DNA from: Candidatus Eiseniibacteriota bacterium
Lineage (GTDB): Bacteria > Eisenbacteria > RBG-16-71-46
Length of the DNA stretch: 31,766 nt
NCBI GenBank assembly: GCA_041483195.1
Contig: JBGPFC010000040.1
Span: 1 to 31,766, forward strand
Reading direction: 5' to 3'
A program made the position numbers and the translations under genes. Of the stretch, positions 3,598 through 30,697 are shown piece after piece. The notes beneath the pieces were generated by a model that did not search any database, was not told the origin of the DNA, and saw nothing but the letters and a program-made list of their open reading frames with translations. Numbering within the stretch: position 1 is the stretch's first letter; every line of letters begins with the position of its first letter.

Positions 3598-3661
3598 GAC
3601 GCCAGCATACATGACGGGCGGCGGATGCCGCCGCGCGGCGCCGTTGGGCTACCATGGCGCG
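3598..3661. promoter_or_regulatory. Divergent pair of putative leaderless sigma70 -10 elements
   Basis: - strand: TATGCT (3604-3609) + 6 nt + GTG. + strand: TACCAT (3650-3655) + 6 nt + ATG (3662). Neither start has an SD. Confidence 0.55.
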
Positions 3662-7377: not shown

Positions 7378-7388
7378 GCCGGGCGCGC

Positions 7389-8858: not shown

Positions 8859-8937
8859 GGAAATTCGACGGCCGGAAACGTACCACGACCGGACCCGGCG
8901 GCGACAACCGCGGCCGGGTGCGCTAGACTGCGCCGCA

Positions 8938-9711
8938 TTGCGACCCCGACCCCGGACTTCCGCGCGTTCAGTCAGGCGCGCTCCTTCGCGAACGCGGATC
9001 GCGGGCGCCGGCGCGCTGCTGGTCATCGCGTGCGCGGGATGCGCGACCCCCGCGGCACGGCCCATGTCTGACCCGGGCTCCGCTCCCGCGCAGCCGGTGC
9101 GCTTCCTCGCGCTCGGCGATTCCTACACCATCGGCGAGCAGGTGGCGCCCTCCGAGCGCTGGCCCGTTCAGCTCGCCTCGCTGCTCCGCCGGCGCCACCT
9201 GCAGGTCCTCGATCCCGAGATCATCGCGCGCACCGGCTGGACCACGGACGAGCTGAGCGCGGCCATCGCGCAGGCCCCGCCACGCGGGCCCTACCAGCTC
9301 GTCTCCCTGCTCATCGGAGTGAACGACCAGTTCCGGGGCCGCGACGTCGAGTCGTATCGCACGCGATTCGTCGACCTGCTGCGGGAGGCGATCGGTTTCG
9401 CGGGCGGAGATTCGCAGCGCGTGATCGTGCTCTCTATCCCGGACTGGAGCGTGACCCCCTACGCTGCGGATCGCGACCGGGTGCGGATCTCCGGCGAGAT
9501 CGACCTGTTCAACGCGGTGAATCGCGCAGAGACCGCGCGCGCCGGCGCACGCTACGTCGACATCACGTCCCGCTCGCGCGACGTCGAGGAGGATTCGACA
9601 CTCGTGGGCCTCGACGGCCTGCACCCGGTGGGCCGCATGTACGACAGCTGGGCCGCGGCCGCGCTGCCCGCGGCGCTCGCGGCGCTCGGGCTGGGCGGCC
9701 GCGCGCGGTGA
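8938..9711 (+). CDS. SGNH/GDSL hydrolase family protein, probably a lipoprotein
   Basis: Blocks 'FLALGDSYT', 'ARTGWTT', 'LLIGVND', 'DGLHP'; lipobox-like 'ALLVIACAGC' upstream. Start uncertain (TTG 8938 after TAGACT, or ATG 9064). Confidence 0.85.
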   Translation: MRPRPRTSARSVRRAPSRTRIAGAGALLVIACAGCATPAARPMSDPGSAPAQPVRFLALGDSYTIGEQVAPSERWPVQLASLLRRRHLQVLDPEIIARTGWTTDELSAAIAQAPPRGPYQLVSLLIGVNDQFRGRDVESYRTRFVDLLREAIGFAGGDSQRVIVLSIPDWSVTPYAADRDRVRISGEIDLFNAVNRAETARAGARYVDITSRSRDVEEDSTLVGLDGLHPVGRMYDSWAAAALPAALAALGLGGRAR

Positions 9712-9792
9712 GCGAGCAGCGGTGAGGCCGTGCCTCGCGCCGCCCCGGCGGGCCGCGTCGCGCGTTTCGTTTCAGGGAGGAATGACGCAATC

Positions 9793-10458
9793 ATGAGAAG
9801 AATCGACCCGATCGCCTCGATCACCGTCGTCGCGCTCGCCGTCGCGCTCGCCGTCGCGCTCGCCGCGCCGGCCTCGCGCGCCGCTTCGAAGCCCGCGCCG
9901 GAGAGCGCGCCCCGGCCGGTGCGCGGCGCGGCCGCCGACAGCGGGATGCCACCACAGCTCGCGGAGGAGATCGGCAAGTACGCCGACCCCGGACCGCAAC
10001 ACGCCGACCTCGCGTACTTCGTCGGCCATTGGACCTCGACGACCCGGGTGTGGGCGGAGCCTGGCTCGAAGCCCGTCGAGTTTCCGGGAAGCGCCGAATA
10101 CAGCCTGATTCTCGGCGGTCGCTTCCTGCAGCTCGACAGCCGCGCCACGGTCGGCGGGGTCGAGGGACATGGCCTCGGGCTCTACGGCTACGACCGTTTC
10201 AAGGAGAAATATTCCTTCTACTATCTGCACGACGCGGACACGCAGGCGCTGGTCGGGCTCGGCGATCGGGACTCGACCGGCACCGGGATCGCGTTCGAGG
10301 TCGCGATGGACATGCCCGCGAGCGGGGAGCACGCGAAGCCGATCCGCGCGGTGTTGCGGCGGCTCGGTCCCGACCGGCACGTGTTCCAGATGTTCGAGAA
10401 ATATCTCGACGGCCGCGACTGGAAGGTGCTGGAGATCACGTTCGACCGCGTGAAGTAG
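9793..10458 (+). CDS. Secreted DUF1579-like protein
   Basis: Signal peptide; 'PGPQHADLAYFVGHW', 'ILGGRFLQ', 'GLGLYGYDRFKEKY', C-terminal 'LEITFDR'; GGGAGG at 9775-9780. Confidence 0.8.
   Translation: MRRIDPIASITVVALAVALAVALAAPASRAASKPAPESAPRPVRGAAADSGMPPQLAEEIGKYADPGPQHADLAYFVGHWTSTTRVWAEPGSKPVEFPGSAEYSLILGGRFLQLDSRATVGGVEGHGLGLYGYDRFKEKYSFYYLHDADTQALVGLGDRDSTGTGIAFEVAMDMPASGEHAKPIRAVLRRLGPDRHVFQMFEKYLDGRDWKVLEITFDRVK
9829..9864 (+). repeat. Tandem 12-bp repeat (GTCGCGCTCGCC)x3 encoding VALA x3 in the signal peptide
   Basis: Three perfect copies at 9829, 9841 and 9853. Confidence 0.9.
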
Positions 10459-14834: not shown

Positions 14835-16544
14835 TCATCTCAGCAGCAGCACGCGGGCGCTCGCCTCAAAGTCCGACCCGGTCACGTGCACCATGTAGAT
14901 CCCGGGCGCACTCACCCGGCCATCATCCGATCGGCCGTCCCATACCAGCGTAACCAAACCGTTGGCGGGAGCGACCAGGATGCGTCGGATGCGACGGCCC
15001 CTGACGTCGAAGATCTCGAGGGCCGCTGGTGTTTCCTGTGGGAGGCGCAACGTGAGTCGAACGCTACCCTCGAACGGATTGGGCCACGCGTCGATCTCGC
15101 TCGGGAGGCCTTCCGGGCTCCTGCTCCCGACGGCGGTATTCGGCTCGTGGGTCTCGGACGCGTCGATGACGGCCACGCCGCCGACGCCATAGTCGGAGGA
15201 TGGGAAGGAAGGATCCAGATAGAAGTCGTCGTCCGTCGCGAGCGCGATGCTCGCCGCGGGGGAGTCGAAGTCGAAGCGCACGGCAAGGATGGAATCGCTT
15301 TGCAGCATCGGGAACAGCAGATCGAGTACCGGGTCGGAGAGAGGAACTTTGTATGAGGCCCCGAGCGGGTTTCCAGTCAGCAGCATGCCCCCGACGGGTA
15401 CGTTGTCAGCGTAGATCGAAACCGACGAGGGGCCGCCATTCTCCATGGCGGTGGTGAACCGGAGGAACGGTTGCATCCGGCGATGAAGCGTCGGCTCGTC
15501 AGCCCAGGTGCCGCCCCCGGTGCGCGGAACCTCCTCCTTCCACAGGGCGAACAGCGTGGAATCTATCTCCACACCGACGGTCGCGGTGGGATAGGTAATC
15601 AGCCGGCCGTCGCCGGGGATGCCCGGCGTGTGACCCGGCAGGTAGGCCACGGTTAGCTCCTGGTACGTTCCGTGCGCGTCAATGAAGACGTAGGCCTTCT
15701 CCTCGCCGGGATGCTCCTGCAGCTGGGTGCTCATGGCATCCAGCGCGTCCTTGAGCCCCTGCTCCGTGGCGTTGCCGTCCACGTCGCCGGTGCCGGAATC
15801 CGTATCCCGGAGGTAGTTGATGTCGGCGTTGCCGTAGCCGGCCCCCTTCAATCCGTCAAAGACCGCCTGCGTGATCGCTTCTCCGAAGTCGGTGGGCTGC
15901 GAAAAAACAATGGCGTGGTTGGAGGTGGTTCCGCCGTGCACCGTCATGTCGTTGGCGGTGGCTCCCGACGAATCGTACCGCGGCTCTTGTTCGGGGTGAT
16001 CATTCTTGTCCCTGGCCGCGGCGTGGAGATCCTTGTTGCTGGTGTTGGGAGCGTCCTTGAGCTTCTTCGCGTACTGCGCAGCATAGCCGTAGTAGTAGCG
16101 ATCGCCCTGGTGAAGACCTGGGTTTCCATGATCAGGAATGTCCACGTCGCCGGTCGTACCGCCCTCGTTGGCGGGGTGGGTTGCGTCGGATGCCGTCGAG
16201 CACGACCAGTTTCCGCCCAAACCCTTGGTGGCGTCCTTGCAGCGGTCCACGAATTCCCCGGAAAAGCAGGAGTCGACAATGATCTCCAGGTCCTGGTAGT
16301 GGGGGCCCAGCTTCTCCTTGAGCATCTTGACGAACGCCGACGAACTGATCACCTTGCCGTCCGACGTCGCGAAGCCGCTCTGCTTTTCTTTCTTCTCGTC
16401 CTGAGCGCGCGCAACGCCTAAGCCGGCGATCACGGCGAGCAGGACGGCAGCAACGAGAATCAGCGGGCGAAGGAGCTCGATGCGAAACCGTGAAGCACTC
16501 CGGCCCGAGGAACAGGCCCCTGCCGAATCGCGAGACGTGATCAT
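14835..16544 (-). CDS. Secreted protein: caspase-fold (clan CD) peptidase-like domain, apparently circularly permuted, plus C-terminal FlgD-Ig (T9SS-CTD-like) domain
   Basis: Signal peptide ending 'GVARA|Q'; 'LEIIVDSCFSGEF' (Cys93) and 'AYVFIDAHG' (His291); tail 'AWPNPF...LEIFDVRGRRIRRI...VWDGRSDDGRVSAPGIYMV'. Confidence 0.78.
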   Translation of the reverse strand: MITSRDSAGACSSGRSASRFRIELLRPLILVAAVLLAVIAGLGVARAQDEKKEKQSGFATSDGKVISSSAFVKMLKEKLGPHYQDLEIIVDSCFSGEFVDRCKDATKGLGGNWSCSTASDATHPANEGGTTGDVDIPDHGNPGLHQGDRYYYGYAAQYAKKLKDAPNTSNKDLHAAARDKNDHPEQEPRYDSSGATANDMTVHGGTTSNHAIVFSQPTDFGEAITQAVFDGLKGAGYGNADINYLRDTDSGTGDVDGNATEQGLKDALDAMSTQLQEHPGEEKAYVFIDAHGTYQELTVAYLPGHTPGIPGDGRLITYPTATVGVEIDSTLFALWKEEVPRTGGGTWADEPTLHRRMQPFLRFTTAMENGGPSSVSIYADNVPVGGMLLTGNPLGASYKVPLSDPVLDLLFPMLQSDSILAVRFDFDSPAASIALATDDDFYLDPSFPSSDYGVGGVAVIDASETHEPNTAVGSRSPEGLPSEIDAWPNPFEGSVRLTLRLPQETPAALEIFDVRGRRIRRILVAPANGLVTLVWDGRSDDGRVSAPGIYMVHVTGSDFEASARVLLLR

Positions 16545-16775: not shown

Positions 16776-17525
16776 CTACCAGCTCCAGCCGAGCCCGAGC
16801 TCGAACGCGCGCGCGCTGCGTTCCATCGAGCCCTTGGCGAGATCGAGCAGACCATGGGCGTAGCGCCCGCGCAGTGACACGACGTGACCGGCGAGCGGCC
16901 GGTTGAGCCCGGCTCCCGCGGTGATCGCCAGGTCGAAGCGTTCGTAGAGGCCGGTCAGGTCGCGGTCGCCTCCGAGCGTGCCCACCTCCTCGAAGATGGC
17001 TGCCGCGGGCGCCGGATGGAAGCTGCGAATGGGATCCGGCGTCGTGGTGATGGAGGCGTCCTGCCGCGAGCGCATCCTCGCGTGCACGAGGTAGCGCGCC
17101 TCGGGTCCGGCCTCGATGACCAGCGGCCCCACCGCGCGGAACGAGGCGCGCAGCGGAAGCGCGATCCAGTGCCAGTCCATCCGCACGTTGCCGCGCATCA
17201 CGGTCGTGGAGCCACCGCCGGTCACGGTGAGCGTGAGATCCTCATCCTCGTTGATTCGGACGTAGCGCAGTCCGGTGCCCAGCGACCAGCGGCCCACGAG
17301 CGGCCACTCCACGGTCGGCCCCACGGCCCACGCGATCCGCATCGGCGGGTCGTCGAGCAGATCGGGGGAATCGCCGCTGCCGCGGGTGAGCTTCCCCTCC
17401 AGCCCCGCGACCTCCACGCCGAGGCGCGCGGCCGCGGCACGAGCGGAGACCGGGACCTGCATCCACGCAGCGAACCCGAACGCGAACGCGAGCAGCACCA
17501 CACGACGAGCATGAGCGCGAGTCAT
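16776..17525 (-). CDS. Outer-membrane beta-barrel protein (PorT / OMP_b-brl_2-like)
   Basis: Signal peptide; amphipathic strands ('WIALPLRASF', 'IEAGPEARYL', 'FDLAITAGAG', 'LRGRYAHGLLDL'); C-terminal aromatic signature 'FELGLGWSW'. Confidence 0.8.
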   Translation of the reverse strand: MTRAHARRVVLLAFAFGFAAWMQVPVSARAAAARLGVEVAGLEGKLTRGSGDSPDLLDDPPMRIAWAVGPTVEWPLVGRWSLGTGLRYVRINEDEDLTLTVTGGGSTTVMRGNVRMDWHWIALPLRASFRAVGPLVIEAGPEARYLVHARMRSRQDASITTTPDPIRSFHPAPAAAIFEEVGTLGGDRDLTGLYERFDLAITAGAGLNRPLAGHVVSLRGRYAHGLLDLAKGSMERSARAFELGLGWSW

Positions 17526-17536
17526 CGAACGCCCCG

Positions 17537-20500
17537 CTACTCCCCGACGATCTGCACCAGCTGCGGCGGCGAGACGCCCTGCTCCTGCGAGGCCTTCGCC
17601 ACCTTCAATGGAATCAGCTTCGAGAACGCCTCATCGTATCGCCAGCGGCGCCACTCGCCATCGAGGCGCACGGTGATGTGCTCGCCCTCGATGCGCAGCG
17701 GCACGCCGCGCCGTGAGGCTTCGCGCGCGATGAACGGCGCCAGCTCCTTCGCCCACTCCTCCGGCGCGATCGCCGACAGCACGTTGCCGGAGTACTGCGC
17801 GGGATCGAGCCGCACCTGCGGATCGAACACGTACACGCGGCCCGCCGCCGCCCCCGACATGAAGAACTTCCCAGCGTAGGGCTTGGGCCGGAGCGCGATC
17901 TCGCCTCGCGCGTCGGGCTTGCGGAACCCCATCACCACGTGCAGCGAGTTCTCGCCGCCCGACATCAGGTACTCGAAAGCGTACTCGTTGGGCGTGCCGA
18001 AGTGGATGGACTTGAAGCCGGGCGCCTGGGTCTTGCCGTCGGCGAGGAACACCTTGTTCTGCCCGGCCGCCGCGAAGCGCGAGCCGGAGTCCCACAGGCT
18101 CACGGTGCCGCCGTGGGCCGCGTACATCGAGGTGTTGAGCACGTCCTGCAGCACGAACAGGTAGCCGGAGTCGGCCTTCATGCCGAGATGGCTCTGACCC
18201 TGGCCGTAGATGCGGATCTCAGCGCCCTCGAGCAGCGCGCCGATGAAGTCGCCGAACTCGCGGCCGAACAGCTCGATCGAGACTCCGTCGGCCGCGAGCC
18301 CGTCGGGCTTCGCGAGGTTGGTGCCGGCGTAGCGCGGGCCGCCGATGAAGTCGTAGCCGACGACGTTTCGCCAGCCGAGCCGCACCGCTTCCGAGAGGAT
18401 GCGCGATGCTGAATCGAGCAGGAACGATTCGCCCCGGAATCCCGCGAAGTCGATCACCAGCACGTCGCGCTCCGCGTCGTTGGGCGGCGCGAGATCGTCG
18501 CGGGTCGCGAGCGTGAGGCGCGCGAAGCGCCACGCGCCGCGTTTCTGGCCGGCGAGCGCCTCGTCGATCCGCGCGACCTCGTCGAGCAGGCGGGTGATCC
18601 CGCCCTCCGGCGATCCGTCCGAGGCGCGGCCGCCGTCGGTCAGGTACTCGACGCTCGAGAGCGCCTTGCCGCCGAGGTCGGCGAACGCGACGCGCTTGCG
18701 CAGCTCGGCCAGCATTCGCAACGCCGCCGCCCGGTGCGATTCGCCGCGCCGCGCGAACGCGATCAGCGCCTGCTCGACCAGGTAGCGGTAGTCCTCGAAG
18801 CTCAGGGTGCGCAGCCGCTCGAGCGCGGCCTCGATCAGCTCGATCGCCGGCGCGGGCAGCGGCTCGTCCGGCCCGAGCCGCCGGCCCGCGCTCATCGCGC
18901 CCGCGCCATCGAGCGCGGTCGCCAGCCGGCCGAGGCGCTCGTCGACGAGCGCCTTCCACGCGGCATCCGCGCGCCGCACCGCCTGATCGAGCGGCAGCGC
19001 GAGATCGGCCTTGCGCCCAGCGCGATCCACCCTCACTTCCTCGCCGAAGCGATTGCGCAGGTCGATCGCGCCGCCGCCGGGCCGCGTGAACGCCTCGAAC
19101 ACGCCGCCGAAATCGTCGCGCCGCGGGTTGCCGCCGGGCCGCATGCTGAAGCGCAGGTCGGCGGCCGCATCCCCGAGCACGCCCTGGCGGTGCAGCACGC
19201 GCAGCATGCTGTCCGCGATCTTGGCCTCGCTCCCGTTCGCGACCGCGTGCACGCCGCCCGGCGCGGTGTCGCGGGTGACGATGATCTCGTGCGGGCGGAG
19301 GAACTTGATGTCCATGTTCTCGCGGAACCCCACCACGCGGCCCTCGGGCGACGGCCGCGACTCGACGATCGTGAACTTGTAGGGGCCGGTCGGCGTGAGC
19401 TGAACGTAGTTCGTCATCAGCAGCGCGAGCTTCGCGCGCCGCGGCTCGTCCATCGCAGCGAGGTCGAGCCCGGTGATGGGCGAGATGATCTGGCTCGCCT
19501 CCTCGGTGGTGAGCCCCAGCACGCGGCGCGTGAAGTCCACCAGGTAGGCCGCGTACTCGGTGTCGGTGAGCGCCTTGCGCTCGTACACCGAGTCGCCGTG
19601 GTACAGCTCGGCGCCCGGGCCCATCGATGGATCGGCGTGGACGAATCCGAACTCGTTCAGGAACGGCGAGGTCGAGTCCACGCCCACCTGCTCGCCGTTG
19701 TGCATGAGCAGCACGTTGTACGCCTTGAACGGATGCGCGCCCGCCGGGTTGCCGCGGCCCTCCGCATCGATCGCCGGCGAGTTGGTGGGGTAGCGATGGT
19801 GCATGCCCCACACGTGCGCGTGGAGCGCGGTGCTGGCGAGCGTGCGCCCGCCGAAGGCGACCTCCACCCCGCCCGCGGCCGCGCCCGGGTAGGACGCCCA
19901 GAAGCGGTCGAAGTCGAAGTACTCGGGGATGGTGTGCGTCCATCCCGACATCTTGATCGCCGCCAGGTCCTCGCCCATCGACACCACGAAGCCGCGGCGC
20001 TTCGCGGCGTACTTGCCGGGCCGCGCCGCGCGCCCGCCCTCGGGCGGCGGCGCGTGGGTGCGGTAGTAACGCGAGTCGAGCAGGTGCGCGAGCGCCGAGA
20101 AGTATTCCTCGCGCACGTCGGCGACGAACTCCGCGAGCCGGCCGGCGATCGGATCGCCCGCCTCCGGCGAATTCCGCAGCGCGACCTCCAGCACCGGGTC
20201 CGGCACGTCGCCGTACTTGGTGCGGCGCTGGAGCCAGTGCTCGCTCGCGATCAGCGTGCGGCCGTAGCGCTCGAGCACCTCGGGCTTCAGCTCGACGAAG
20301 AACGTGTAGAAGTCGCCAGGGTTCTCGCGGAGCGCGGCCCCGCGCCAGCCGTCGTCGCCGGCGTAGCGCGCGCGCACCGGCAGACGGAACGCGTCGAGCT
20401 GCTCGTGGACCGTTGCGGCCCCGACCTCGGCGCCCCGCGCGTCGAAGAAGCGGCAGCCCTCGAGGTGCGCGAGCATCTCGTGCATGCTCGCCACGCGGTC

Positions 20501-23500
20501 GGGGCCGATGGTGTTGAAAACGAGGCAGGTCTTCTCGCGCAACGGCGCCGGCGCGAAGCCGGCGAAGTCGATCCCCCCGCCGCGGTTGTTGCCGCCGTTG
20601 TACGAGAGCCGCGCCGCCTCCCAGATCGCCTCCACAGTGACCGGCTCGCTCACCGCCAGCGAGCCGACGCGGCACGAGTCGTGATCGGCCTCGAGGCGCG
20701 AGGCCGCTGGCTCGGGATGACGCGGCATCTCGAGCAGGTCGGTGCGTCCGCGCAGCTTTCTTATGTCGTCCAGCAGGCGCTCGGGCGCGACCACCACCCC
20801 CGCGCGGTCGAGCGCGCCGGTCTCGAGATTGAGCGCGTCCACCAGCACCGAGAGCTTCACCATGTTGAGCACCGTCCAGTTGCGGAAGCGGAGCTTCATG
20901 AGGTGGCGGTCGTTCTGCATGGTGAGCTCGGGCTTGGTGGTGATCCCGCCGCGCGGGCAATCGAGGTGGCAGTTCCCGCACTGATTGCATCCGAACGCCG
21001 CGGCCTTCCCGATGCTCGCCTCGACCAGCCCGTCCGCGCCGGCGATCAGCACCTTCAGCATGTCGAGCTCGCCCCGCAGCCCGCCCGACGCGAACAGCCG
21101 CGTTCCGCCGCCCGCGCCGAACGGCGCGCCGTTCAGGTCGCGGATCGGGTGCAGGCTGCCCGATCCGTCCAGGTCCACGCGCTCGCTCACCAGCGCGTGA
21201 TGGGTGTGGAGGATGGTGCGGAAGATGTCGGGCCAGCCCACGTGCGATGAGTCGGCGTGATAGTTCCCCGACCCGCCGAGCCCCGAGTCCACCAGCAGGT
21301 AGTCCACCACGAAGTTCGACCACATGCCGGCCGCGACGTACTTCGTGTAGTTGGAGCCGGTGATCTTGATGCCGCAGTAGTTGTGGTAGAGCAGCCACAG
21401 CCACACCTCGGCCGGCATGTCCTCGATCGAGTAGATGTCGTGCTTGGGATCGGGCGAGAGCGCGTCGGTGCCGACCGGAATGTTTCGCGCCTTGCTCACC
21501 GTCGACGTCACCTTGGCGCCCGAGAGCCGCCCGCCCTTGCCGGGCTTCGCGCCCTGGTTGATCTTGATCTCGACGTCGCGCACCCTCCGCAGGTCGGCCG
21601 CGTGAATGCCGAAGTGTCCGCTCGCCGCCTGCAGGCTCTCCCATTTCATCTCGTCGCCGGCGAACCGCAGCGGCCCGCCCTCTCCCGACGACGTCATCGC
21701 GAGCCCGGCGTTGCCCTCGATGCGCGCCATCAGGAAGTCTTCGGACGCAGCGCCCAGCGAGATGCTGGCGTGGCTCACCGGCCCGCTCCAGATCGGCTCG
21801 CGGAATCCGAAGCCGGACAGCACCAGCCCGCCGCGCGGGTCGCGTCGCACCGTGACGCCGCCGTCGCGGGAGGCGCGCAGCACGGTGCGCCCGTTCCCGC
21901 CGTGCCCGCGAGCGAGCAGCTCGATGGCGAGCGACTCGTCGTCGCCGTCCTTCGCATCGAGCCACAGCGAGCCGCCGCCCGGGAGCGCGGCCTCGAGCGG
22001 ATGGCCGGTCTGGAGCCTCACCTCGAATCCGCCGTGCGCGTCGGCCTCGAACGCCGCCAGCGAAGCGCCGCCCGGCGACGCAGCGATCGTCACGTGCGCG
22101 CCGGCGGGCGTCGCCCCGTGGCGCAGGAACCCGCGCGGCACGGCGAGCGAGACGTAATCGAGGAGCGCCGGATCGCGGCGCAGGCGCTCGAGCGACCACG
22201 CGAGCGAAGCACGCGACAGCCTGACCCTCACGCCGTCGAGCGAGAGCTCGCCCATGTCGCTCTCGATGAAGAAGTCCTCTTCGAGCGGCATCCGGCCCGC
22301 CGCCATGCGGTAGATCACGTCGAGGAAGTCGGCGTTCAGGTTGCGGTTCGAATTCTGAAGATGATAGTTCGCGCTCTCGTGCGCGATCACCTTCGCGGCG
22401 TGCACCAGCGGCAGATCGGGCTTCACCTCGGCCAGCAGCGCAGACGCCTTGAAGCGCTCGCGCACCCGCCGCGGCGCGGGCTCCGCCGCGACCCGGCGCG
22501 CGTTGAGCGCCGCGTTCTCGCGGCCGAACTCCGGCGTCGCGAGGCGGTCCACCTCGCGAATCCACTCCTCGGTCATGGTGATCGCCATGGTGTTGCCGGA
22601 GGTCTTCTGGATGTCGTCGATTCCCATGCACGAGAGGAAGTCGAGGATGCTGTGCTGCCAGCACGCGAGGGTGTTGAGCGCGAGGTCGCGCAGCGCAGCG
22701 GGATCGCGGCGCGCGAGGGATGCGATCAACGGCGCGGCGTCGGCGCCGTGGTAGGCGTCCACCAGCTCGGGCAGCAGCGCGATCCCGGCGAGGTGCGTCA
22801 TCGCGCCGCCGTTCGCGCCCAGCAGCACCGATTCGTAGACGGTCGCGGCCGAGGCCTGGGTGTCGGTGTCGCCGCCCGCCGAGATGAGCTGGACGCGCGC
22901 GCGCAGGAAGCGCGCCTTGAGGAACCCGTCGATGCGCGGCGTCAGGCGGTAGGATTTCTCCGCCCCCGACTGGTAGTGGATCGCGGCCACGCCATCCAAC
23001 CGCACCGAGGATTCGAGCGCGGCCCAGAACGCGGCGTCGCTCCCGGCCGCGTCCGCCTGGTAGCGGAGGAACACCGACAACAGGAGCTCGGGGTTGGCCT
23101 CGAGCGCGAGCGCCGCGTCGCGCGCGAGCGTTTCGCTCCACTCGAGCTCAGCGACCCGCGCGGCCCGCAGCGCGGCGCGCATCGCGTCCGAAGCCGCGCC
23201 GGCTCCCGCGAGCAATGCGGCGTCCGCCGGCGAGAGCCGCGGCATGATGTCGGCCGCGAACGGCTTCAGCGCCTCACGATGCTCGAGGTAGCGGGCGGCT
23301 TCGATCACCACCAGCGAGCGCACCCGCACGTCGTGAGCGGGATCGAACGACCCGATCGCCTCGAGCCACGCGCGCTCCATGGTGATGCCGTCGCCGAGCG
23401 GGAGCGGCCCCACCACCATCGGCAGGTCGAGGCGCACCGCGCGGATCGGGGTCTGGGTCCGCCCAGCCGCGGTGCGGAACAGCACGGCCGGGTGCTTGCG

Positions 23501-24004
23501 CACCAGGTCCCACGCCGTCGAGAATTCCTCCCGCAATCCGTCGTTCGCGGGATGCGTGATGGCGGCATGCGAGAAGTACGAGCGCCAGAACCCGTGGTGC
23601 CACGCCGCGCCCAGCGTGAGCGGCTCCTGCCGCCAGCGTTCCTTGATGACCTTGTCGATGTCGAACGAGGTGATCTCGAGCTGCGGGATCTGGCGCGACA
23701 CGCGCGAGTAGCGGCTCAGGAACAGCCGCCCGCGTTGCCCGCGCCCGAGCTTCCAGAACTGGTCCTCCGCGATCTCGGCTCGCTTCAGCAGGAACGTGAG
23801 CGCCGCGCGCTTGCGCGGCCGCTCCGCGACGCGCGGGCTCTCGGGATCCACCACCAGCGTGAGCAGGTCCTCCCAGAGCGCGACCCGCTCGAGGAAGGCC
23901 CCGCCCTCGGCGCCGCCCTCCGCCCCGGCGCGCACACCCGCCTCCGCGCCGTTCTCCGCGCCGTCGATCATCTCGCGCGCCAGCCGCTCGAGGCCGATGC
24001 TCAT
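17537..24004 (-). CDS. gltB: Glutamate synthase large-subunit-like protein with non-canonical domain order (degenerate barrel - FMN barrel/Fe-S - class II glutamine amidotransferase - GXGXG)
   Basis: FMN domain: 'SSGEGG', 'QAASGHFGI', 'EIKINQGAKPGKGGRLSGAKVT', 'SPDPKHDIYSIED', 'ASGGLRG', 'CNQCGNCHLDCP', 'LRGRTDLL'. GATase-2: 'HDSCRVG', 'HHRYPTNS', 'AHPF', 'HNGE', 'TDTE'. GXGXG region: 'GDFIGALLEGAEIRIYGQGQSHLG', 'YAFEYLMSGG', 'SGAAAGRVYV'. Confidence 0.85.
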   Translation of the reverse strand: MSIGLERLAREMIDGAENGAEAGVRAGAEGGAEGGAFLERVALWEDLLTLVVDPESPRVAERPRKRAALTFLLKRAEIAEDQFWKLGRGQRGRLFLSRYSRVSRQIPQLEITSFDIDKVIKERWRQEPLTLGAAWHHGFWRSYFSHAAITHPANDGLREEFSTAWDLVRKHPAVLFRTAAGRTQTPIRAVRLDLPMVVGPLPLGDGITMERAWLEAIGSFDPAHDVRVRSLVVIEAARYLEHREALKPFAADIMPRLSPADAALLAGAGAASDAMRAALRAARVAELEWSETLARDAALALEANPELLLSVFLRYQADAAGSDAAFWAALESSVRLDGVAAIHYQSGAEKSYRLTPRIDGFLKARFLRARVQLISAGGDTDTQASAATVYESVLLGANGGAMTHLAGIALLPELVDAYHGADAAPLIASLARRDPAALRDLALNTLACWQHSILDFLSCMGIDDIQKTSGNTMAITMTEEWIREVDRLATPEFGRENAALNARRVAAEPAPRRVRERFKASALLAEVKPDLPLVHAAKVIAHESANYHLQNSNRNLNADFLDVIYRMAAGRMPLEEDFFIESDMGELSLDGVRVRLSRASLAWSLERLRRDPALLDYVSLAVPRGFLRHGATPAGAHVTIAASPGGASLAAFEADAHGGFEVRLQTGHPLEAALPGGGSLWLDAKDGDDESLAIELLARGHGGNGRTVLRASRDGGVTVRRDPRGGLVLSGFGFREPIWSGPVSHASISLGAASEDFLMARIEGNAGLAMTSSGEGGPLRFAGDEMKWESLQAASGHFGIHAADLRRVRDVEIKINQGAKPGKGGRLSGAKVTSTVSKARNIPVGTDALSPDPKHDIYSIEDMPAEVWLWLLYHNYCGIKITGSNYTKYVAAGMWSNFVVDYLLVDSGLGGSGNYHADSSHVGWPDIFRTILHTHHALVSERVDLDGSGSLHPIRDLNGAPFGAGGGTRLFASGGLRGELDMLKVLIAGADGLVEASIGKAAAFGCNQCGNCHLDCPRGGITTKPELTMQNDRHLMKLRFRNWTVLNMVKLSVLVDALNLETGALDRAGVVVAPERLLDDIRKLRGRTDLLEMPRHPEPAASRLEADHDSCRVGSLAVSEPVTVEAIWEAARLSYNGGNNRGGGIDFAGFAPAPLREKTCLVFNTIGPDRVASMHEMLAHLEGCRFFDARGAEVGAATVHEQLDAFRLPVRARYAGDDGWRGAALRENPGDFYTFFVELKPEVLERYGRTLIASEHWLQRRTKYGDVPDPVLEVALRNSPEAGDPIAGRLAEFVADVREEYFSALAHLLDSRYYRTHAPPPEGGRAARPGKYAAKRRGFVVSMGEDLAAIKMSGWTHTIPEYFDFDRFWASYPGAAAGGVEVAFGGRTLASTALHAHVWGMHHRYPTNSPAIDAEGRGNPAGAHPFKAYNVLLMHNGEQVGVDSTSPFLNEFGFVHADPSMGPGAELYHGDSVYERKALTDTEYAAYLVDFTRRVLGLTTEEASQIISPITGLDLAAMDEPRRAKLALLMTNYVQLTPTGPYKFTIVESRPSPEGRVVGFRENMDIKFLRPHEIIVTRDTAPGGVHAVANGSEAKIADSMLRVLHRQGVLGDAAADLRFSMRPGGNPRRDDFGGVFEAFTRPGGGAIDLRNRFGEEVRVDRAGRKADLALPLDQAVRRADAAWKALVDERLGRLATALDGAGAMSAGRRLGPDEPLPAPAIELIEAALERLRTLSFEDYRYLVEQALIAFARRGESHRAAALRMLAELRKRVAFADLGGKALSSVEYLTDGGRASDGSPEGGITRLLDEVARIDEALAGQKRGAWRFARLTLATRDDLAPPNDAERDVLVIDFAGFRGESFLLDSASRILSEAVRLGWRNVVGYDFIGGPRYAGTNLAKPDGLAADGVSIELFGREFGDFIGALLEGAEIRIYGQGQSHLGMKADSGYLFVLQDVLNTSMYAAHGGTVSLWDSGSRFAAAGQNKVFLADGKTQAPGFKSIHFGTPNEYAFEYLMSGGENSLHVVMGFRKPDARGEIALRPKPYAGKFFMSGAAAGRVYVFDPQVRLDPAQYSGNVLSAIAPEEWAKELAPFIAREASRRGVPLRIEGEHITVRLDGEWRRWRYDEAFSKLIPLKVAKASQEQGVSPPQLVQIVGE

Positions 24005-26655
24005 CGCGCGGTCTCCCGCTCCAGCTCATCGAGCGCGACGAACCAGTCGCGCGTCGGCGCCTCGATCACGCGCAGCGTCTGCCCGCCGTTCAGCTCGTTC
24101 GCCGGGCACACCTCGACGCAGGTTCCGCAGCCGATGCAGCGCTCCTGCAACGTGGTGATCGAACGCGGATCCTCGCCATCGAACTCGCGGTTCGCGAAGG
24201 TCGGGCACACCGCGACGCACGCCCCGCAGTGGATGCAGGTGGCGGCCGGTCCGGCGTCGTTCTCGGCGCGCAGCAGCAGGTAGCGGGCGACGCCCGGCAG
24301 CGCCGCCGGCGCGCGCTTGAGGTAGGCGCCGGGCCGCACGTTCAGGAACTCCCGCGTGTAGCGCGGCGAGGCGCGCAGCGCCGCGAGCAGCGCGACGTGG
24401 CGCTCGCGGCGATCCGCGCGGGCCGCCGGCGCCGGTTCGGCCGCGTCGGCGGCGCGCTGCATGTGCTCGTAGAGCGGCAGGTGCGGGATCCCCGCCTGGC
24501 AGACCTCCTCGCAGTTGCCGCATCGCATGCACAGATCGAGCAGCGTGCGGCCGCTCTCGCCGATCGCCTCGCCGGCGTGATGGGCCTCGCCGAGATGGGT
24601 GAGCATCTGCGGCAGCCGGATCTTCGAATCGACGAAGACCGGGCACACGGTGTTGCACTCGCCGCAGTTCACGCAGTTGAGCGCGCGGGCGGAGGCGGCC
24701 TGCGGCGTGACGCCGTCCGCCGCCGGCGCGTGCGCGGCGCCGACCGGCTCTCCTCGGCCGCGCGCCGGGCCGGGGAAGATCGCGGCGATCGGGCGCGCGA
24801 GCCGCGCGAGCCAGGAGAGCGCCGCGCTCCCGTAGATCACGCGCATCGCGGTGACGCTCGGGACGAAGGTCGCGGTCAGCATCGCGCCCAACGCGCCGTG
24901 AAGCCGGAGGCCCAGCCGCACGCCGCGGTTCACGATCCCGGCGGGATCGAGCTTCGCCTTGAGTGCCCGCGTTGCCGCCGCGCGCTCGCGGCCCAGCTGG
25001 CGATCGGCCCATGCCGACTGCCAGCGGCCGAGGACGTAGGGCCGTCCGCCGTGCGCGTTCATCGCGAGATCCACCAGCGCCGGCGCGATCATGAGATCGA
25101 TCGCGAACGCGCCGCTGCGGTGGTCGGTGAGATATCCCCCGATGACGAGCGCCTCGCCGTCCGCGAGGAAGTAGACCTCGGCATCGAGCGCGTTGCCCGC
25201 GCCGCGCGCCAGCGCCTCGGCCCGCGGCAGGAAGGTGCGCACCTGCGCGGCGGGCATGACGATCTCGGCGGCGAGCAGGCCGGGGCCGAGCCGCTTGGTC
25301 TGCTGGGGCTTGAAGCGCTCGGCCGCGAACCGCACGCTCTCCTCGCCGAGCAGCCGCGGCGCGCCGGGCGCCTCCTGCCAGACCGCCGCGAACGTGCGGG
25401 CTTCATCGAGACCGAGGAAATCCACGAACAGGTAGGCCGCGGCGTGTTCGCGGTCGGGCGCGGCCTCGGCGCCCAGCTCCGCCGGCCCGGCGATGCGCGT
25501 CCACGGCAGACGCGCCCCGCTCGAGAGCGCGCTCGGGCGTTCCTTCCAGGTTCGCGCGTCCTCGTCCCGCCACACGCGGCGCGTGTGGTGGAGGTGAGAG
25601 CCCGAGAACAGCTTCAGATTGGCGGGCCTCGGGAACCGCGAGCCCGCGCCGCTCAGGACCCAATCGGCCGCGTCGAGCGCGGCTTCGCGCGTCTCGAACG
25701 ACATCAGGAACGCGCCGATCTCCCGCAGCGGCTCGACCCGCACCGCGAGGTGGAGCAGCACGCCGAACACGCCCTCGCTGCCCGCGAGGTCGCGCAGCGT
25801 GATGGGCGAGAGTCCGCGCGCGGTGAACCACGCGGCGGCTTCGGCGGGCGCGAGCGACTTGCGATGGCGGCCATCCGGCACGTCGAGCCGTCCGTCGTCG
25901 TGAAAGCGCAGGTGCTCGCCGTCGGGCAGCACCAGGTCGGCGGCGCGCACGCTGTCGAGCGCGCGACCGTTGCCGAACGCGTTCATGCCGATGCCGCCGG
26001 TCGCGAACCAGCCCGCGAGCGTGCCCCCGAGATTCGACGGGTAGACCCGAAGCGCGAGGCCGCGCTCCGCGAGGCGCTGATGCACGGTGCGCAGCCTCGC
26101 GCCGGCGCCCACCACGCACACGCCGTCGGCGGCGAGGATCTCGATCTCGTCGAGCCGCGAGAGATCGAGCGTGAGCCCGCCGTCGTTCGGCACCGATCCG
26201 CCCATCGCGGTCGACGCCGCGCCGCGCAGCGTGACGGGCACGCCGTAGGTGCGTCCCCAGCGCAGCGCCGTCACGACTTCGGCGCGATGCGCGGGCTGGA
26301 AGATCAGATCGGGGACCGCCCGCGTGAGGGTGCGCGTGAACAGGCGGCCGAGATAGACGTTCTGGTCGCGATCGGCCTCGCGGCGCAGCAGCGCGTCGGT
26401 CACGATGCGGGCGTCGCGCGTGTGCCCGCCGCCGTCGTCGCCGGCCTCCGCGCTCAGCACCGCGAGCAGCGAAGCGGCCAGCTCGAGCGTGCGACGCGGC
26501 GCCTCGCGCCCGGCGGGCGCGCGGCCGTCGTCGAAGAAGGTGTGGAGGTCCGGGATCGCGGTTCGCACGGCAGCGGCTCGCTGCTCGTGGGTCAGCGCCG
26601 TGAACGCATCCAGCGATTGACCGGCGACTCGCTCGAGGAAGGAGGGCTGGGTCAT
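24001..26655 (-). CDS. FAD-binding oxidoreductase (FAD_binding_4, GlcD/VAO superfamily) fused to two dicluster [4Fe-4S] ferredoxin domains
   Basis: 'PDLIFQP...VPVTLRGAASTAMGGSVP..GGLTLDLSRL', 'YPSNLGGTLAGWFATGGIG', 'GSEGVFGV', 'KAKLDPAGIVNRG'. Four motifs: CVNCGECNTVCP, CMRCGNCEEVCQ, CIHCGACVAVCP, CIGCGTCVEVCP. ATGA overlap with the gltB-like gene. Confidence 0.88.
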   Translation of the reverse strand: MTQPSFLERVAGQSLDAFTALTHEQRAAAVRTAIPDLHTFFDDGRAPAGREAPRRTLELAASLLAVLSAEAGDDGGGHTRDARIVTDALLRREADRDQNVYLGRLFTRTLTRAVPDLIFQPAHRAEVVTALRWGRTYGVPVTLRGAASTAMGGSVPNDGGLTLDLSRLDEIEILAADGVCVVGAGARLRTVHQRLAERGLALRVYPSNLGGTLAGWFATGGIGMNAFGNGRALDSVRAADLVLPDGEHLRFHDDGRLDVPDGRHRKSLAPAEAAAWFTARGLSPITLRDLAGSEGVFGVLLHLAVRVEPLREIGAFLMSFETREAALDAADWVLSGAGSRFPRPANLKLFSGSHLHHTRRVWRDEDARTWKERPSALSSGARLPWTRIAGPAELGAEAAPDREHAAAYLFVDFLGLDEARTFAAVWQEAPGAPRLLGEESVRFAAERFKPQQTKRLGPGLLAAEIVMPAAQVRTFLPRAEALARGAGNALDAEVYFLADGEALVIGGYLTDHRSGAFAIDLMIAPALVDLAMNAHGGRPYVLGRWQSAWADRQLGRERAAATRALKAKLDPAGIVNRGVRLGLRLHGALGAMLTATFVPSVTAMRVIYGSAALSWLARLARPIAAIFPGPARGRGEPVGAAHAPAADGVTPQAASARALNCVNCGECNTVCPVFVDSKIRLPQMLTHLGEAHHAGEAIGESGRTLLDLCMRCGNCEEVCQAGIPHLPLYEHMQRAADAAEPAPAARADRRERHVALLAALRASPRYTREFLNVRPGAYLKRAPAALPGVARYLLLRAENDAGPAATCIHCGACVAVCPTFANREFDGEDPRSITTLQERCIGCGTCVEVCPANELNGGQTLRVIEAPTRDWFVALDELERETAR

Positions 26656-28030: not shown

Positions 28031-28058
28031 TAAAGTATACCCGCGCCGTTGCCGATGG
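28031..28058 (+). promoter_or_regulatory. Putative sigma28 (FliA/SigD/WhiG-type) promoter
   Basis: TAAA(G)-N-GCCGATGG: TAAA at 28031-28034 and GCCGAT at 28051-28056 (16-nt spacer; consensus TAAA-N15-GCCGATAA). Confidence 0.55.
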
Positions 28059-28159
28059 TACGGGGGTTGAGGCTTCTCCGCTGCGCATGGCCCCCCCTCG
28101 CGCACAACAGCATTCATTCAAGTGCAGTCTCGAGTGTCCACCGGGCCTGGAGTCCATCC

Positions 28160-30697
28160 GTGCCTGATCGCACGCCATCAGAAGCCACCCCCCGCGGCGG
28201 GAGCGCGGCCGCGCCCGCCGCATGGGTGGTCATGCTGGTCGGCGCCGGCGCGCTGATCGGATGGCAGCTGAACGTCGCGGCGCTCAAGAGCGTCCTCCCC
28301 GGGCTGGTCGCCATGAATCCCGCCACCGCGGTGGCGTTCGTCCTCGCCGGGATGTCGCTGATGTCGCTGCGCGACCCCGCGGCCCCGCTGCGGGTACGTC
28401 GCGCGGGGTACCTGCTCGCGGCGGCGGTGGCCGCGATCGGGCTCCTGCGACTCTGCGATCTCCTGCTCGGCTCGCGCGTGTGCCCGGACACGTACCTGTT
28501 CGCCTCCCAGCTCTCGAGCGCGCAGGGGTTGCCGCCCAACCGGATGGCCCCGAACACGGCGACCGGATTCATGCTCGTGGGGCTCGCGTTGATCACGCTC
28601 AACTGGGAGATTCGCCGCGGCCATCGCCCCTCGCAGGCGTTCGCGCTGCTCGCCGCGGGACTCTCGCTGCTCGCCGTTCTCGGCTACCTGCTCGACGTCC
28701 GCCAGCTGTACGGCGTGGGGTCGTTCATCCCGATGGCGCTCAACACCGCCATCCTGTTCCTGGTGTGTTCGGTCGGGGTGCTGTTCGCGCGTCCGGCGCG
28801 CGGGATCACGCGGGTGATCGTGGCGAGCGACGCGGGCGGCACCCTGGCGCGCCGCCTGCTGCCGTTCGCGCTCGTGACGCCCGTCGTCCTGGCGTGGTTG
28901 AGGATCTACGCCCAGCGCGCGGGGGTGCTCGCCTCCGAACCGGGCGTCTCGGTGATGGTGTTCCTCGGCATCGTGATCCTGACCGGCTTCATCTGGTGGA
29001 ACGCGAGCCGACTGAGCCATGCGGACATCGAGCGCAGGGACGCGCTGGCGGAGCTTACGCGCGCCCACGACGATCTCGAGCTGCGGGTGAGCGAGCGCAC
29101 GTCGCAGCTCGAAGACCTCAACCGGCGGATGCGCGGCGAGGTCGGCGAGCATGTCCAGACGGCGAACGCGTTGCGCGCCTCGGAGGCGCGCTATCGTCTG
29201 CTCTTCACCTCCAACCCGCACCCGATGTGGGTCTACGACCGCGTGACCCTGAGATTCATGGCGGTGAACGACGCGGCGATCAGGCTCTACGGCTATTCCA
29301 TGGACGAGTTCAGGGACATGACGATCGAGGACATCCTGCCCGCGGAGCAGGTGCCGGCGCTGCTCCCGGAAATTAGAGGCTCCCGGCCGGCGCTCAATCG
29401 TTCCGGCGAATGGAAGCACCGGCGGAAGGACGGCACGGTGCTCGACGTCGAAGTGTCGTCCCACACGCTGGTGTTCGCGGACCGCGATGCGGCGCTGGTG
29501 CTGGCGCTCGACGTGACCAGTCGCAGGCAGCTCGAGGCGCAGCTGCGCCAGGCGCAGAAGATGGAAGCCGTCGGCCAGCTCGCGGGAGGCGTCGCCCATG
29601 ATTTCAACAATCTGCTCACCGCGATCATGGGGTACGGACAGTTGATCCAGGTGAGACTCGCCCCGGACGACCCCGCGATCCACGACAGCGGCGAGATCCT
29701 GAAGGCCGCGGAGCGCGCGGCGTCGCTCACGCGGCAGCTGCTGGCCTTCAGCCGCCGGCAGCTGCTGGAACCGCGCGTGCTCGACCTGAACGCCGTGATC
29801 ACCGGGTTGGACAAGATGCTGCGGCGGCTGATCGGCGAGGACATCGATCTGGTCACGGCGCCGACCTCCGAGCTCGGCATGGTTCGGGCCGATCCGGGCC
29901 AGATCGAGCAGGTGCTGATGAACCTGGTCGTCAACGCGCGCGACGCGATGCCCCACGGCGGACGGCTCACCATCGAGACCGCGAACGTCACGCTCGGCGA
30001 GGACTACGCCCGCGCGCACGTGGACGTGAAGCCCGGACGCCATGTCATGCTGGCGGTGAGCGACACCGGGGTCGGCATGAGCCCGGAGACGCGGGCGCGC
30101 ATCTTCGAGCCGTTCTTCACGACGAAGGAAACGGGCAAGGGCACCGGGCTCGGCCTCTCGACCGTGCACGGAATTGTCCGGCAGAGCGAGGGGCACATCG
30201 AGGTCTACACCGAGCCGGGACATGGCACGACGTTCAAGATCTGCCTGCCCCGCGTGGAAGGCGCGGTGGAGCCGGCCGACGCGCGGCAGGACGCGCTGGA
30301 GCGCGTCGCGGGAACCGAGACCATCCTGGTGGTCGAGGACGAAGAGAGCATCCGCGGGGTGATCCGCGCGTCCCTGGAGGTCTACGGGTACCGAGTGCTC
30401 GAGGCCGCGGACGGAAGCGAGGGGATCACGATCTGCGAGCGTCGCGAGCAACGCATCGATCTGCTGATGGCCGACGTCGTGATGCCGCTGATGGGCGGGC
30501 CCGAGCTGGTGCGGCGCATCGGAATGGTCCGCCCGGATCTGCCGGTGCTGTTGATCTCGGGCTACACCGACCGGGCGCTCACCCACCAGGGCCTGCGGGA
30601 ATCGGAGACCGCATTCCTCCAGAAACCCTTCACCCCCGAAGCGCTGGCGCGAAAGGTCCGCGAGATCCTCGACGCTCCGCTCCGGGACGCCGCCTGA
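28160..30697 (+). CDS. Hybrid sensor histidine kinase/response regulator (multi-TM sensor, PAS, HisKA, HATPase, REC; CckA-like core)
   Basis: About 7-8 TM segments; PAS 'NPHPMWVYD...VNDAA...YGYS'; H-box 'GGVAHDFNNLL'; N-box 'NLVVNARDAM'; 'FFTTK..GKGTGLGL'; REC 'VVED...DVVMP...KPF'. GGAG before GTG 28160. Confidence 0.93.
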   Translation: MPDRTPSEATPRGGSAAAPAAWVVMLVGAGALIGWQLNVAALKSVLPGLVAMNPATAVAFVLAGMSLMSLRDPAAPLRVRRAGYLLAAAVAAIGLLRLCDLLLGSRVCPDTYLFASQLSSAQGLPPNRMAPNTATGFMLVGLALITLNWEIRRGHRPSQAFALLAAGLSLLAVLGYLLDVRQLYGVGSFIPMALNTAILFLVCSVGVLFARPARGITRVIVASDAGGTLARRLLPFALVTPVVLAWLRIYAQRAGVLASEPGVSVMVFLGIVILTGFIWWNASRLSHADIERRDALAELTRAHDDLELRVSERTSQLEDLNRRMRGEVGEHVQTANALRASEARYRLLFTSNPHPMWVYDRVTLRFMAVNDAAIRLYGYSMDEFRDMTIEDILPAEQVPALLPEIRGSRPALNRSGEWKHRRKDGTVLDVEVSSHTLVFADRDAALVLALDVTSRRQLEAQLRQAQKMEAVGQLAGGVAHDFNNLLTAIMGYGQLIQVRLAPDDPAIHDSGEILKAAERAASLTRQLLAFSRRQLLEPRVLDLNAVITGLDKMLRRLIGEDIDLVTAPTSELGMVRADPGQIEQVLMNLVVNARDAMPHGGRLTIETANVTLGEDYARAHVDVKPGRHVMLAVSDTGVGMSPETRARIFEPFFTTKETGKGTGLGLSTVHGIVRQSEGHIEVYTEPGHGTTFKICLPRVEGAVEPADARQDALERVAGTETILVVEDEESIRGVIRASLEVYGYRVLEAADGSEGITICERREQRIDLLMADVVMPLMGGPELVRRIGMVRPDLPVLLISGYTDRALTHQGLRESETAFLQKPFTPEALARKVREILDAPLRDAA

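Follow-up and report, generated by a model that had tools for sequence, protein, structure and literature searches.

It is a textbook property of class II amidotransferases that the first residue of the enzyme serves as its nucleophile, which raises the question of how to understand a glutamate-synthase-like protein whose candidate nucleophile lies in the middle of the chain. The protein in question, P0001, is encoded by an open reading frame of 2155 codons (17537..24004, minus strand) in a stretch of DNA of 31,766 nucleotides from Candidatus Eiseniibacteriota bacterium (contig JBGPFC010000040.1 of assembly GCA_041483195.1; hereafter the window, G+C about 70%). It contains ten cysteines, and its domains run in the order glutamate synthase (GltS)-type barrel, FMN barrel, class II (N-terminal nucleophile, Ntn) amidotransferase and GXGXG, with Cys1111 opening the amidotransferase. 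An earlier note, made from the sequence alone, had proposed this order, and it is borne out by Pfam for the FMN domain, by a fold match for the amidotransferase and by hhalign for the C-terminal domain. We lean towards the view that the protein is a glutamine-dependent glutamate synthase with a new, fused architecture, that it would cleave itself at Ser1110|Cys1111, and that it would receive its electrons from an FAD/Fe-S partner encoded directly upstream.

The amidotransferase is the domain on which this view turns, and profile searches do not see it. It went undetected by Pfam (whole protein and four pieces), by NCBIfam, by phmmer against the PDB and by a search of the PDB with the family profile, and none of 34 family members matched the Pfam GATase families (GATase_2, 4, 6 and 7) at E <= 10. 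The hmmscan suggested in the earlier note thus placed Glu_synthase as expected, but left GXGXG below threshold and the amidotransferase to be shown by fold only. An AlphaFold2 model of residues 1096-1670, built on a 34-sequence alignment, had a mean predicted local distance difference test score (pLDDT) of 80 and a predicted template modelling score of 0.88, with the ten residues preceding Cys1111 below pLDDT 50. When the model was compared with the PDB by Foldseek, seven GltS large-subunit entries came out on top (E 5e-8 to 2e-6), and the next matches were GlmS, PurF and EgtC. Superposition with VIA gave Z scores of 19.9 for GltS 1ofe_A (root-mean-square deviation 3.6, 363 aligned residues, chain 1-405), 15.3 for PurF, 14.7 for GlmS, 11.9 for EgtC and 7.8-8.6 for asparagine synthetase, while unrelated rows began at Z 3.8. 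In every class II amidotransferase row the first aligned residue was model residue 16, which is Cys1111; it pairs with residue 1 of the target chain (or residue 2; 22 in one entry's own numbering) and superposes on residue 1 of GltS, PurF, GlmS and AsnB. The predicted structure therefore has the Ntn alpha-beta-beta-alpha fold with the Cys opening its first strand, so that the putative nucleophile is in the right place in the fold but at residue 1111 of 2155, rather than at the N-terminus behind a short propeptide. The Cys1111 codon and proposed cleavage site lie at 20672..20674 (minus strand, codon context ADHDSCRVGSLA; residues A-D-H-D-S-C-R-V-G-S-L-A), and the rest of the domain, residues 1112-1656, at 19037..20671 (minus strand).

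The protein is not an isolated case. A protein database search gave 171 matches at E <= 0.001; among the 120 of these that were listed, nearly all are 2100-2340 residues long, share 56-82% identity over their full length and are annotated at most as 'glutamate synthase-related protein'. There are at least 120 full-length relatives or protein clusters, and we found 63 loci in species-representative genomes, from metagenome-assembled genomes labelled Eisenbacteria, Thermoleophilia and other Actinomycetota, Planctomycetota, Krumholzibacteriia and others. Cys1111, whose conservation the earlier note had singled out as a check, is invariant together with D1109, S1110, R1112 and V1113 in all 29 members of our alignment, and the heptapeptide D-S-C-R-V-G-S does not vary among the 33 loci whose frame is 2050 residues or longer. 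The same alignment shows invariant H-H-R-Y-P-T-N-S-P (1402-1410), H-N-G-E-Q (1435-1439) and T-D-T-E (1480-1483), the cores of the domain motifs HHRYPTNSP, MHNGEQ and LTDTEY. From the numbering of GlmS and PurF, we take Arg1404 to be the ligand of the glutamine alpha-carboxylate, Asn1436-Gly1437 the oxyanion hole and Asp1481 the ligand of the alpha-amino group; this residue-level equivalence to GlmS is an interpolation rather than a printed alignment. It is consistent with protein P0293, whose HxR, HNG and TDTE motifs fall within the stretch that matches both E. coli GlmS 63-128 (E 0.01) and Pfam GATase_6. Given the place of Cys1111 and the invariance of its flanks and of the binding residues, internal processing is the simplest reading. 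The earlier note had suggested such processing, and its anatomy and logic stand; the cleavage itself is something we infer.

How such an arrangement could come about is indicated by relatives in which the same pieces are separate genes. A profile of the amidotransferase region found 137 of 1.84 billion representative proteins, and the matches beyond the fused family include proteins of 780-900 residues with GATase_6 and GXGXG. In all, 575 relatives of this split type were found, and the counts given for it here rest on 80 loci (L078-L157). A Glu_synthase gene lies directly upstream on the same strand in all 61 split loci with at least 1.8 kb of upstream sequence, and a second, degenerate barrel gene precedes this FMN gene in all 51 with at least 3.4 kb. 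In L082, for example, Pfam gives the order type I glutamine synthetase (GS), Fer4 with a weak Glu_synthase, Fer4 with Glu_synthase (317 bits), and GATase_6 with GXGXG. With hhalign, the N-terminal region of the window protein matched the first barrel protein of the split operon (83.7%, E 8e-6, 312 columns), as against only 10% for the split FMN protein. The 2155-residue protein is collinear with this three-gene operon of barrel, FMN protein and amidotransferase-GXGXG protein: its pieces are homologous to those of the operon and lie in the same order, though they are not separate genes here, and the two forms also share the long amidotransferase insert, the HxR, HNG and TDTE motifs and, frequently, a GS neighbour. 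This collinearity means that the protein originated by gene fusion and not by rearrangement of a GltB gene. The label 'permuted GltB' in the earlier note was thus right in that the order differs from that of bacterial GltB, but needs qualification.

The split relatives also bear on processing. Unlike the fused protein, the split form consists of three proteins, and its Cys stands behind a short leader, in the context [EDAG]-E-G-G|C-G-V in 80 of 80 loci, and never directly after the start codon; the leader is typically about 34 codons long in the longest frame. With a leader before the Cys in every split relative, processing is probably ancestral in the clade. Since the split amidotransferase would already need its leader removed, a leader that has grown to 1110 residues requires no new chemistry. 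A separate observation concerns the other two split proteins, which in L082 (4750-7864, plus strand) both carry N-terminal ferredoxin-type domains that the fused protein does not have. That these domains sit on the barrel proteins in the split form and on the FAD partner in the fused family suggests that an electron-entry module has been exchanged.

The partner is an 884-residue protein encoded at 24001..26655 (minus strand), in which ferredoxin-type 4Fe-4S domains come after a VAO/PCMH-type FAD domain. The stop codon of the gene overlaps the start of the large frame (ATGA), with GGGAG ten bases upstream. Pfam gives FAD_binding_4 at 95.7 bits, a weak FAD-oxidase_C and two ferredoxin-type regions (Fer4 families), and among solved structures the protein comes nearest to D-lactate dehydrogenase (E 9e-12), an FAD/FMN dehydrogenase and LctD; NCBIfam matches to GlcD, GlcE, GlcF, RnfC and polyferredoxin are all far below threshold. 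Each of the 48 fused loci with upstream sequence has a homologue of the partner there, on the same strand as the enzyme; among the 80 split loci, only 3 have a relative of it. The remaining 15 of the 63 fused loci begin inside the large gene, and a 49-bit match downstream in one of these was spurious.

The FMN/synthase barrel that this partner would serve (residues 742-1042; 20879..21781, minus strand) is the only domain that Pfam sees in the whole protein. It scores 144 bits against Glu_synthase (PF01645; cut-off 20.4, E 8.4e-42), and phmmer matches it to GltS chains in the PDB (E 1.9e-20) over residues 761-925 only. The sequence of the FMN site is GltS-like, as in QGAKPGKGG. Within the domain, the motif C-N-Q-C-G-N-C-H-L-D-C-P (1006-1017) contains four cysteines, Cys1006, 1009, 1012 and 1016 (C-x2-C-x2-C-x3-C-P; 20954..20989, minus strand), that are invariant in the 29-member alignment and form a putative Fe-S site; Fer4-family matches to it are weak (E 0.01-0.06). 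The motif sits where the 3Fe-4S ligands of GltS lie, and presumably replaces the three-Cys pattern of GltB. The earlier note had included neither the conserved partner nor this motif, nor the link to GS described below.

Distant relatives join partner and enzyme physically. The megaproteins P0274 (3016 residues), P0281 (2508 residues) and P0325 (3152 residues), which match the amidotransferase profile at E 3e-24 to 7e-6 among the representative proteins, fuse the partner, as FAD_binding_4, FAD-oxidase_C and Fer4 domains, with glutamate-synthase domains. P0274 and P0281 hold FAD, Fe-S, Glu_synthase and amidotransferase domains in one chain, P0274 with GXGXG as well, and P0325 runs amidotransferase, GXGXG, FAD, Fer4, FMN. 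These fusions support the idea that partner and enzyme form a functional unit. Like the fused enzyme, P0274 and P0281 have an internal Cys, at 1896 (L-D-A|C-G-V-V) and 1991 (V-D-A|C-G-V-V) respectively; unlike it, they keep an ordinary DA|CGV and carry the partner in the same chain. These two chains show that more than one origin lies behind an internal nucleophile Cys.

We propose the following mechanism. The end-to-end fusion of three neighbouring split-synthase genes left the catalytic Cys at residue 1111. After folding, Cys1111 would attack the Ser1110-Cys1111 peptide bond, as in other Ntn enzymes, and cleavage would yield one chain of about 1110 residues and another of about 1045, which would remain together. 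The freed Cys1111 would then hydrolyse glutamine, and the ammonia would pass to the FMN site and add to 2-oxoglutarate, where the resulting imine would be reduced by FMN. Electrons would travel from the FAD and Fe-S centres of the co-translated partner through the four-Cys site to FMN, with the partner taking the place of GltD or ferredoxin.

The remaining regions complete the picture of the chain. A model of residues 40-740 (pLDDT 75) shows a beta/alpha barrel at residues of about 108-488 (22541..23683, minus strand). Foldseek alone returned only generic TIM barrels from the PDB for this model. VIA placed GltS 7mfm_G first (Z 18.2, 288 aligned residues), tied with mandelate oxidase, flavocytochrome b2, glycolate oxidase and IMPDH (Z 16.4-18.0), and in the ESM Atlas residues 100-500 lie nearest to Glu_synthase and Glu_syn_central clusters (0.85-0.91). 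The VIA rank and the Atlas neighbours together indicate that the earlier note was correct to see a degenerate barrel here. In a review, the GltS central domain is described as a truncated barrel, thought to be duplicated from the FMN barrel and to line the ammonia tunnel (PMC8097209). The modelled N-terminal barrel corresponds to this domain. Its most conserved stretches, residues 127-165 (23510-23626, minus strand) and 448-478 (22571-22663, minus strand), hardly vary from one phylum to another and contain Cys448 and Cys459; pLDDT falls below 50 at about residues 127-164 and 459-485, overlapping both. Possible roles for these stretches are an interface, part of a tunnel wall, or an as yet unrecognised site that takes its fold only in the complete enzyme.

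Between the two barrels, residues 489-741 (21782..22540, minus strand) form helices followed by a small beta domain in the model and have no Pfam match. The linker between the FMN barrel and the amidotransferase, residues 1043-1110 (20675..20878, minus strand), varies in length among relatives in its distal part and ends in the conserved H-D-S before the Cys. Contigs of other runs show length differences of 13 and 17 bases at 20691-20709, shortly before the Cys codon; these are not multiples of three and may represent more distant relatives aligned with short flanks. Behind the amidotransferase comes an inter-domain region, residues 1657-1880 (18365..19036, minus strand), which is poorly conserved in its first part and aligns with the matching region of the split relatives in its later part. 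The C-terminal domain, at residues of about 1880-2100 (17705..18364, minus strand), is of GXGXG type. Pfam GXGXG gives 13.8 bits for the window protein, below the cut-off (E 0.04), and is likewise below threshold in 22 of 33 members (E <= 1, best E 2e-4). By hhalign, this region matches the GXGXG-bearing half of P0293 (99.5%, E 2.4e-22, 366 columns), a protein with its own GXGXG match of 46 bits (cut-off 32.5) and a match to formylmethanofuran dehydrogenase subunit C (FwdC) at E 2.7e-7, and we assign it as the GXGXG beta-helix on these grounds.

Several observations weigh against a self-cleaving, glutamine-dependent synthase, and the main cautions among them are the Cys-Arg in place of Cys-Gly, the conserved H-D-S before it and the absence of GS from many carriers. 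The Arg after Cys1111, which the earlier note had already marked as unusual, is invariant in the 29 aligned members and the 33 full-length loci, whereas all other class II amidotransferases seen here have Gly; processing or catalytic geometry may therefore differ. A search for shorter forms of the fused family gave 164 matches, and among the seven inspected there was no natural split form: all seven were contig-end fragments or frameshifted calls with out-of-frame Arg/Ala-rich stretches, and none began with Met-Cys. The NCBIfam equivalog model for GltB, NF008730, scores the protein at 76.5 bits, far below its cut-off of 1047. The family to which the FAD domain of the partner belongs usually oxidises 2-hydroxy acids rather than NAD(P)H, and electron flow with the partner could run the opposite way.

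The last of these points concerns glutamine supply. The genome (4.17 Mb, 93 contigs, 96.8% complete) has a single Glu_synthase match, this gene, which makes it the only glutamate-synthase candidate; no canonical GltB was detectable in it, and GATase_2 gave no match above cut-off. It contains three ELFV-type dehydrogenases and GltD-like Fer4_20 proteins, none of the latter adjoining the large frame. Neither Pfam Gln-synt_C nor the type III GS protein of a relative detected a GS. We compared 56 genomes of the same order with completeness of at least 90%, of which 15 carry the family and 45 have a GS match. GS was found in 7 of the 15 carriers and not in 8, namely this genome and seven other module-bearing relatives; among the 41 non-carriers, it was found in 38 (including the unpublished G020) and not in 3. 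Because related genomes are not independent, we attach no statistic to these counts. Carriers without GS would have a glutamine-consuming enzyme with no obvious internal supply. That the module makes glutamine in reverse in such genomes was rejected by reasoning only, as the architecture holds nothing to activate the gamma-carboxylate. In 5 of the 7 carriers with GS (G011, G045, G057, G058 and G059), the GS match shares its contig and strand with the amidotransferase region and sits about 4.9 kb upstream of it. At L005, L014, L025, L049 and L075 a 733-residue type III GS (GSIII_N 227 bits) stands between the partner and the large gene, giving a three-gene unit of GS, partner and synthase; at L075 it occupies 7126-9324 (plus strand), and the window has no such gene. 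A GS gene is also present in 18 of the 44 split loci with at least 5.2 kb of upstream sequence. This neighbourhood pattern links the module to glutamine metabolism.

Two alternatives survive best, both of them unlikely in our estimation. In the first, the chain is never cut, and the internal Cys1111 works with another general base, such as His1108, Asp1109 or a residue oriented by Arg1112; the enzyme would then be the first of the class II amidotransferases to act without its Cys at a free N-terminus. The H-D-S before the Cys and the Arg after it, so different from the EEGG|CG of the split relatives, could mean a changed catalytic arrangement, and the seven short matches inspected are as this alternative would have it. 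In all the characterised enzymes of this fold that were matched, however, the chain starts at the Cys, as residue 1 or, in those that retain the initiator Met, as residue 2, and His1108 is replaced by Arg in 2 of 33 loci, so His1108 is not essential. Moreover, the distant P0274 and P0281 keep their ordinary DA|CGV around an equally internal Cys, which fits processing better than new chemistry arising twice. A further candidate that we considered and rejected is an internal translation start at Met1093. The conservation of this residue is 90% or higher, but nothing resembling a Shine-Dalgarno sequence lies ahead of it, and a leader of 18 residues would still have to be removed.

The second alternative, to which we give the same low weight, keeps the glutamate-synthase type of enzyme but changes its substrates. 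It could use a different amide or gamma-glutamyl donor or another 2-oxo acid, carry out a redox-neutral amine transfer like that of N-methylglutamate synthase, or work oxidatively and pass electrons to the FAD/Fe-S protein. Such a change would suit the eight carriers of fifteen that have no GS, a partner that resembles a 2-hydroxy-acid dehydrogenase more than an NAD(P)H oxidoreductase, an amidotransferase too divergent for any Pfam GATase model, and barrel stretches (127-165 and 448-478) whose conservation goes beyond the needs of a domain with a structural role only. It sits less well with the invariance of the alpha-carboxylate and alpha-amino binding residues typical of glutamine users, with the GS genes that several lineages, and the split relatives too, have within or beside the module, and with the 144-bit match of the FMN domain to Glu_synthase.

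Less probable still is that the amidotransferase is silent, with a structural or regulatory role, and that the enzyme uses free ammonia and needs no cleavage. An internal Cys, the replacement of Gly2 by Arg and the three ELFV-type dehydrogenases, which suggest an ammonia-based nitrogen metabolism, would be in keeping with this. The earlier note had allowed for a dead domain, but Cys1111, Arg1404, Asn1436-Gly1437 and Asp1481 are invariant across phyla, which is unexpected for a silent site, and the domain is retained at its full length of about 545 residues in 33 of 33 full-length loci. Finally, an assembly or sequencing artefact joining two genes, which the earlier note had named as a way in which it might be wrong, can be dismissed with near certainty, because the frame is just as uninterrupted in all 33 full-length loci, which come from independent assemblies (Eisenbacteria, Thermoleophilia, Planctomycetota and others), there are at least 120 full-length protein clusters, and four more public runs have contigs that agree with 20600-20881 or a longer stretch (up to 20600-21115), across the Cys codon and linker, with zero differences. 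Among the runs listed as containing the sequence, none was of RNA.

The self-cleaving synthase that we favour resembles known systems in part. It shares four kinds of domain and a GltS-like FMN site with GltB/alpha-GltS and ferredoxin-GltS (PDB 1ea0, 6s6s, 1ofd). Unlike in GltB, where the order is amidotransferase, central domain, FMN and GXGXG, its amidotransferase follows the FMN domain; its Cys comes at 1111 and not after a propeptide some dozens of residues long, Arg takes the place of Gly after that Cys, and instead of an adjacent GltD it has a VAO-type FAD/4Fe-4S partner. A review gives NADPH-, ferredoxin- and NADH-dependent forms of glutamate synthase and mentions single-domain GltS reading frames in Archaea (PMC8097209). 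Our literature search, with most subscription journals outside its coverage, found no description of a permuted or internal amidotransferase in a glutamate synthase. To our knowledge, class II amidotransferases have only short propeptides, or an initiator Met; here the 'propeptide' would be a working synthase half of 1110 residues. Two-chain, self-processing Ntn hydrolases include penicillin acylase, gamma-glutamyltranspeptidase, glycosylasparaginase and proteasome beta subunits. By analogy with these, the nucleophile of the fused enzyme would attack the preceding peptide bond and both products would be kept, although the enzymes just named are hydrolases and belong to branches of the Ntn fold other than its own.

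The surroundings of the module are otherwise variable. When the neighbours in the 63 loci were clustered, only lineage-specific housekeeping genes emerged besides the partner and GS (ABC ATPase, rhomboid, P-type ATPase, glycosylases). In the window, an outer-membrane beta-barrel protein (16776-17525, minus strand) lies directly downstream of the enzyme. Further genes encode a hybrid histidine kinase with PAS and receiver domains (28049-30697, plus strand), a DAO-type FAD oxidoreductase (1724-3691, minus strand), a DUF1579 protein (9730-10458, plus strand) and a protein with a FlgD-Ig domain (14835-16544, minus strand). None of these five is conserved beside the module in relatives. At L037 (15593-19246, minus strand) and in about nine other Thermoleophilia-type loci, a gene for a protein of 1217 residues lies downstream on the opposite strand, with Fer2_4, a GltD-like Fer4_20/Pyr_redox_2 module, ferredoxin domains and TPP_enzyme_C; it is lineage-specific and could be related to 2-oxo-acid metabolism.

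In summary, we describe a clade, spread across several phyla of uncultured soil and sediment bacteria, in which the Cys of a class II amidotransferase lies 1110 residues into the chain. Self-cleavage predicts two fragments, the second with the N-terminus CRVGSL. If the enzyme does cleave itself, it would link amidotransferases to the two-chain Ntn hydrolases and show that a gene fusion was tolerated because processing was already in place. More tentatively, we speculate that it may be a fourth kind of glutamate synthase: a 2155-residue precursor that would cut itself at Ser1110|Cys1111 into synthase and amidotransferase chains and be driven by a dedicated VAO-type FAD/4Fe-4S dehydrogenase instead of GltD or ferredoxin, coupling the oxidation of a 2-hydroxy acid (or another donor that is not a pyridine nucleotide) to glutamate formation in bacteria that have lost GS and canonical glutamate synthase. 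The conservation of the FAD/Fe-S partner is a pointer to a route, so far undescribed, by which electrons enter nitrogen assimilation, and the current annotation, 'glutamate synthase-related protein', leaves the role in nitrogen metabolism open. As this is the sole glutamate-synthase candidate in a genome with no detectable GS, its true reaction decides how these widespread organisms handle nitrogen.

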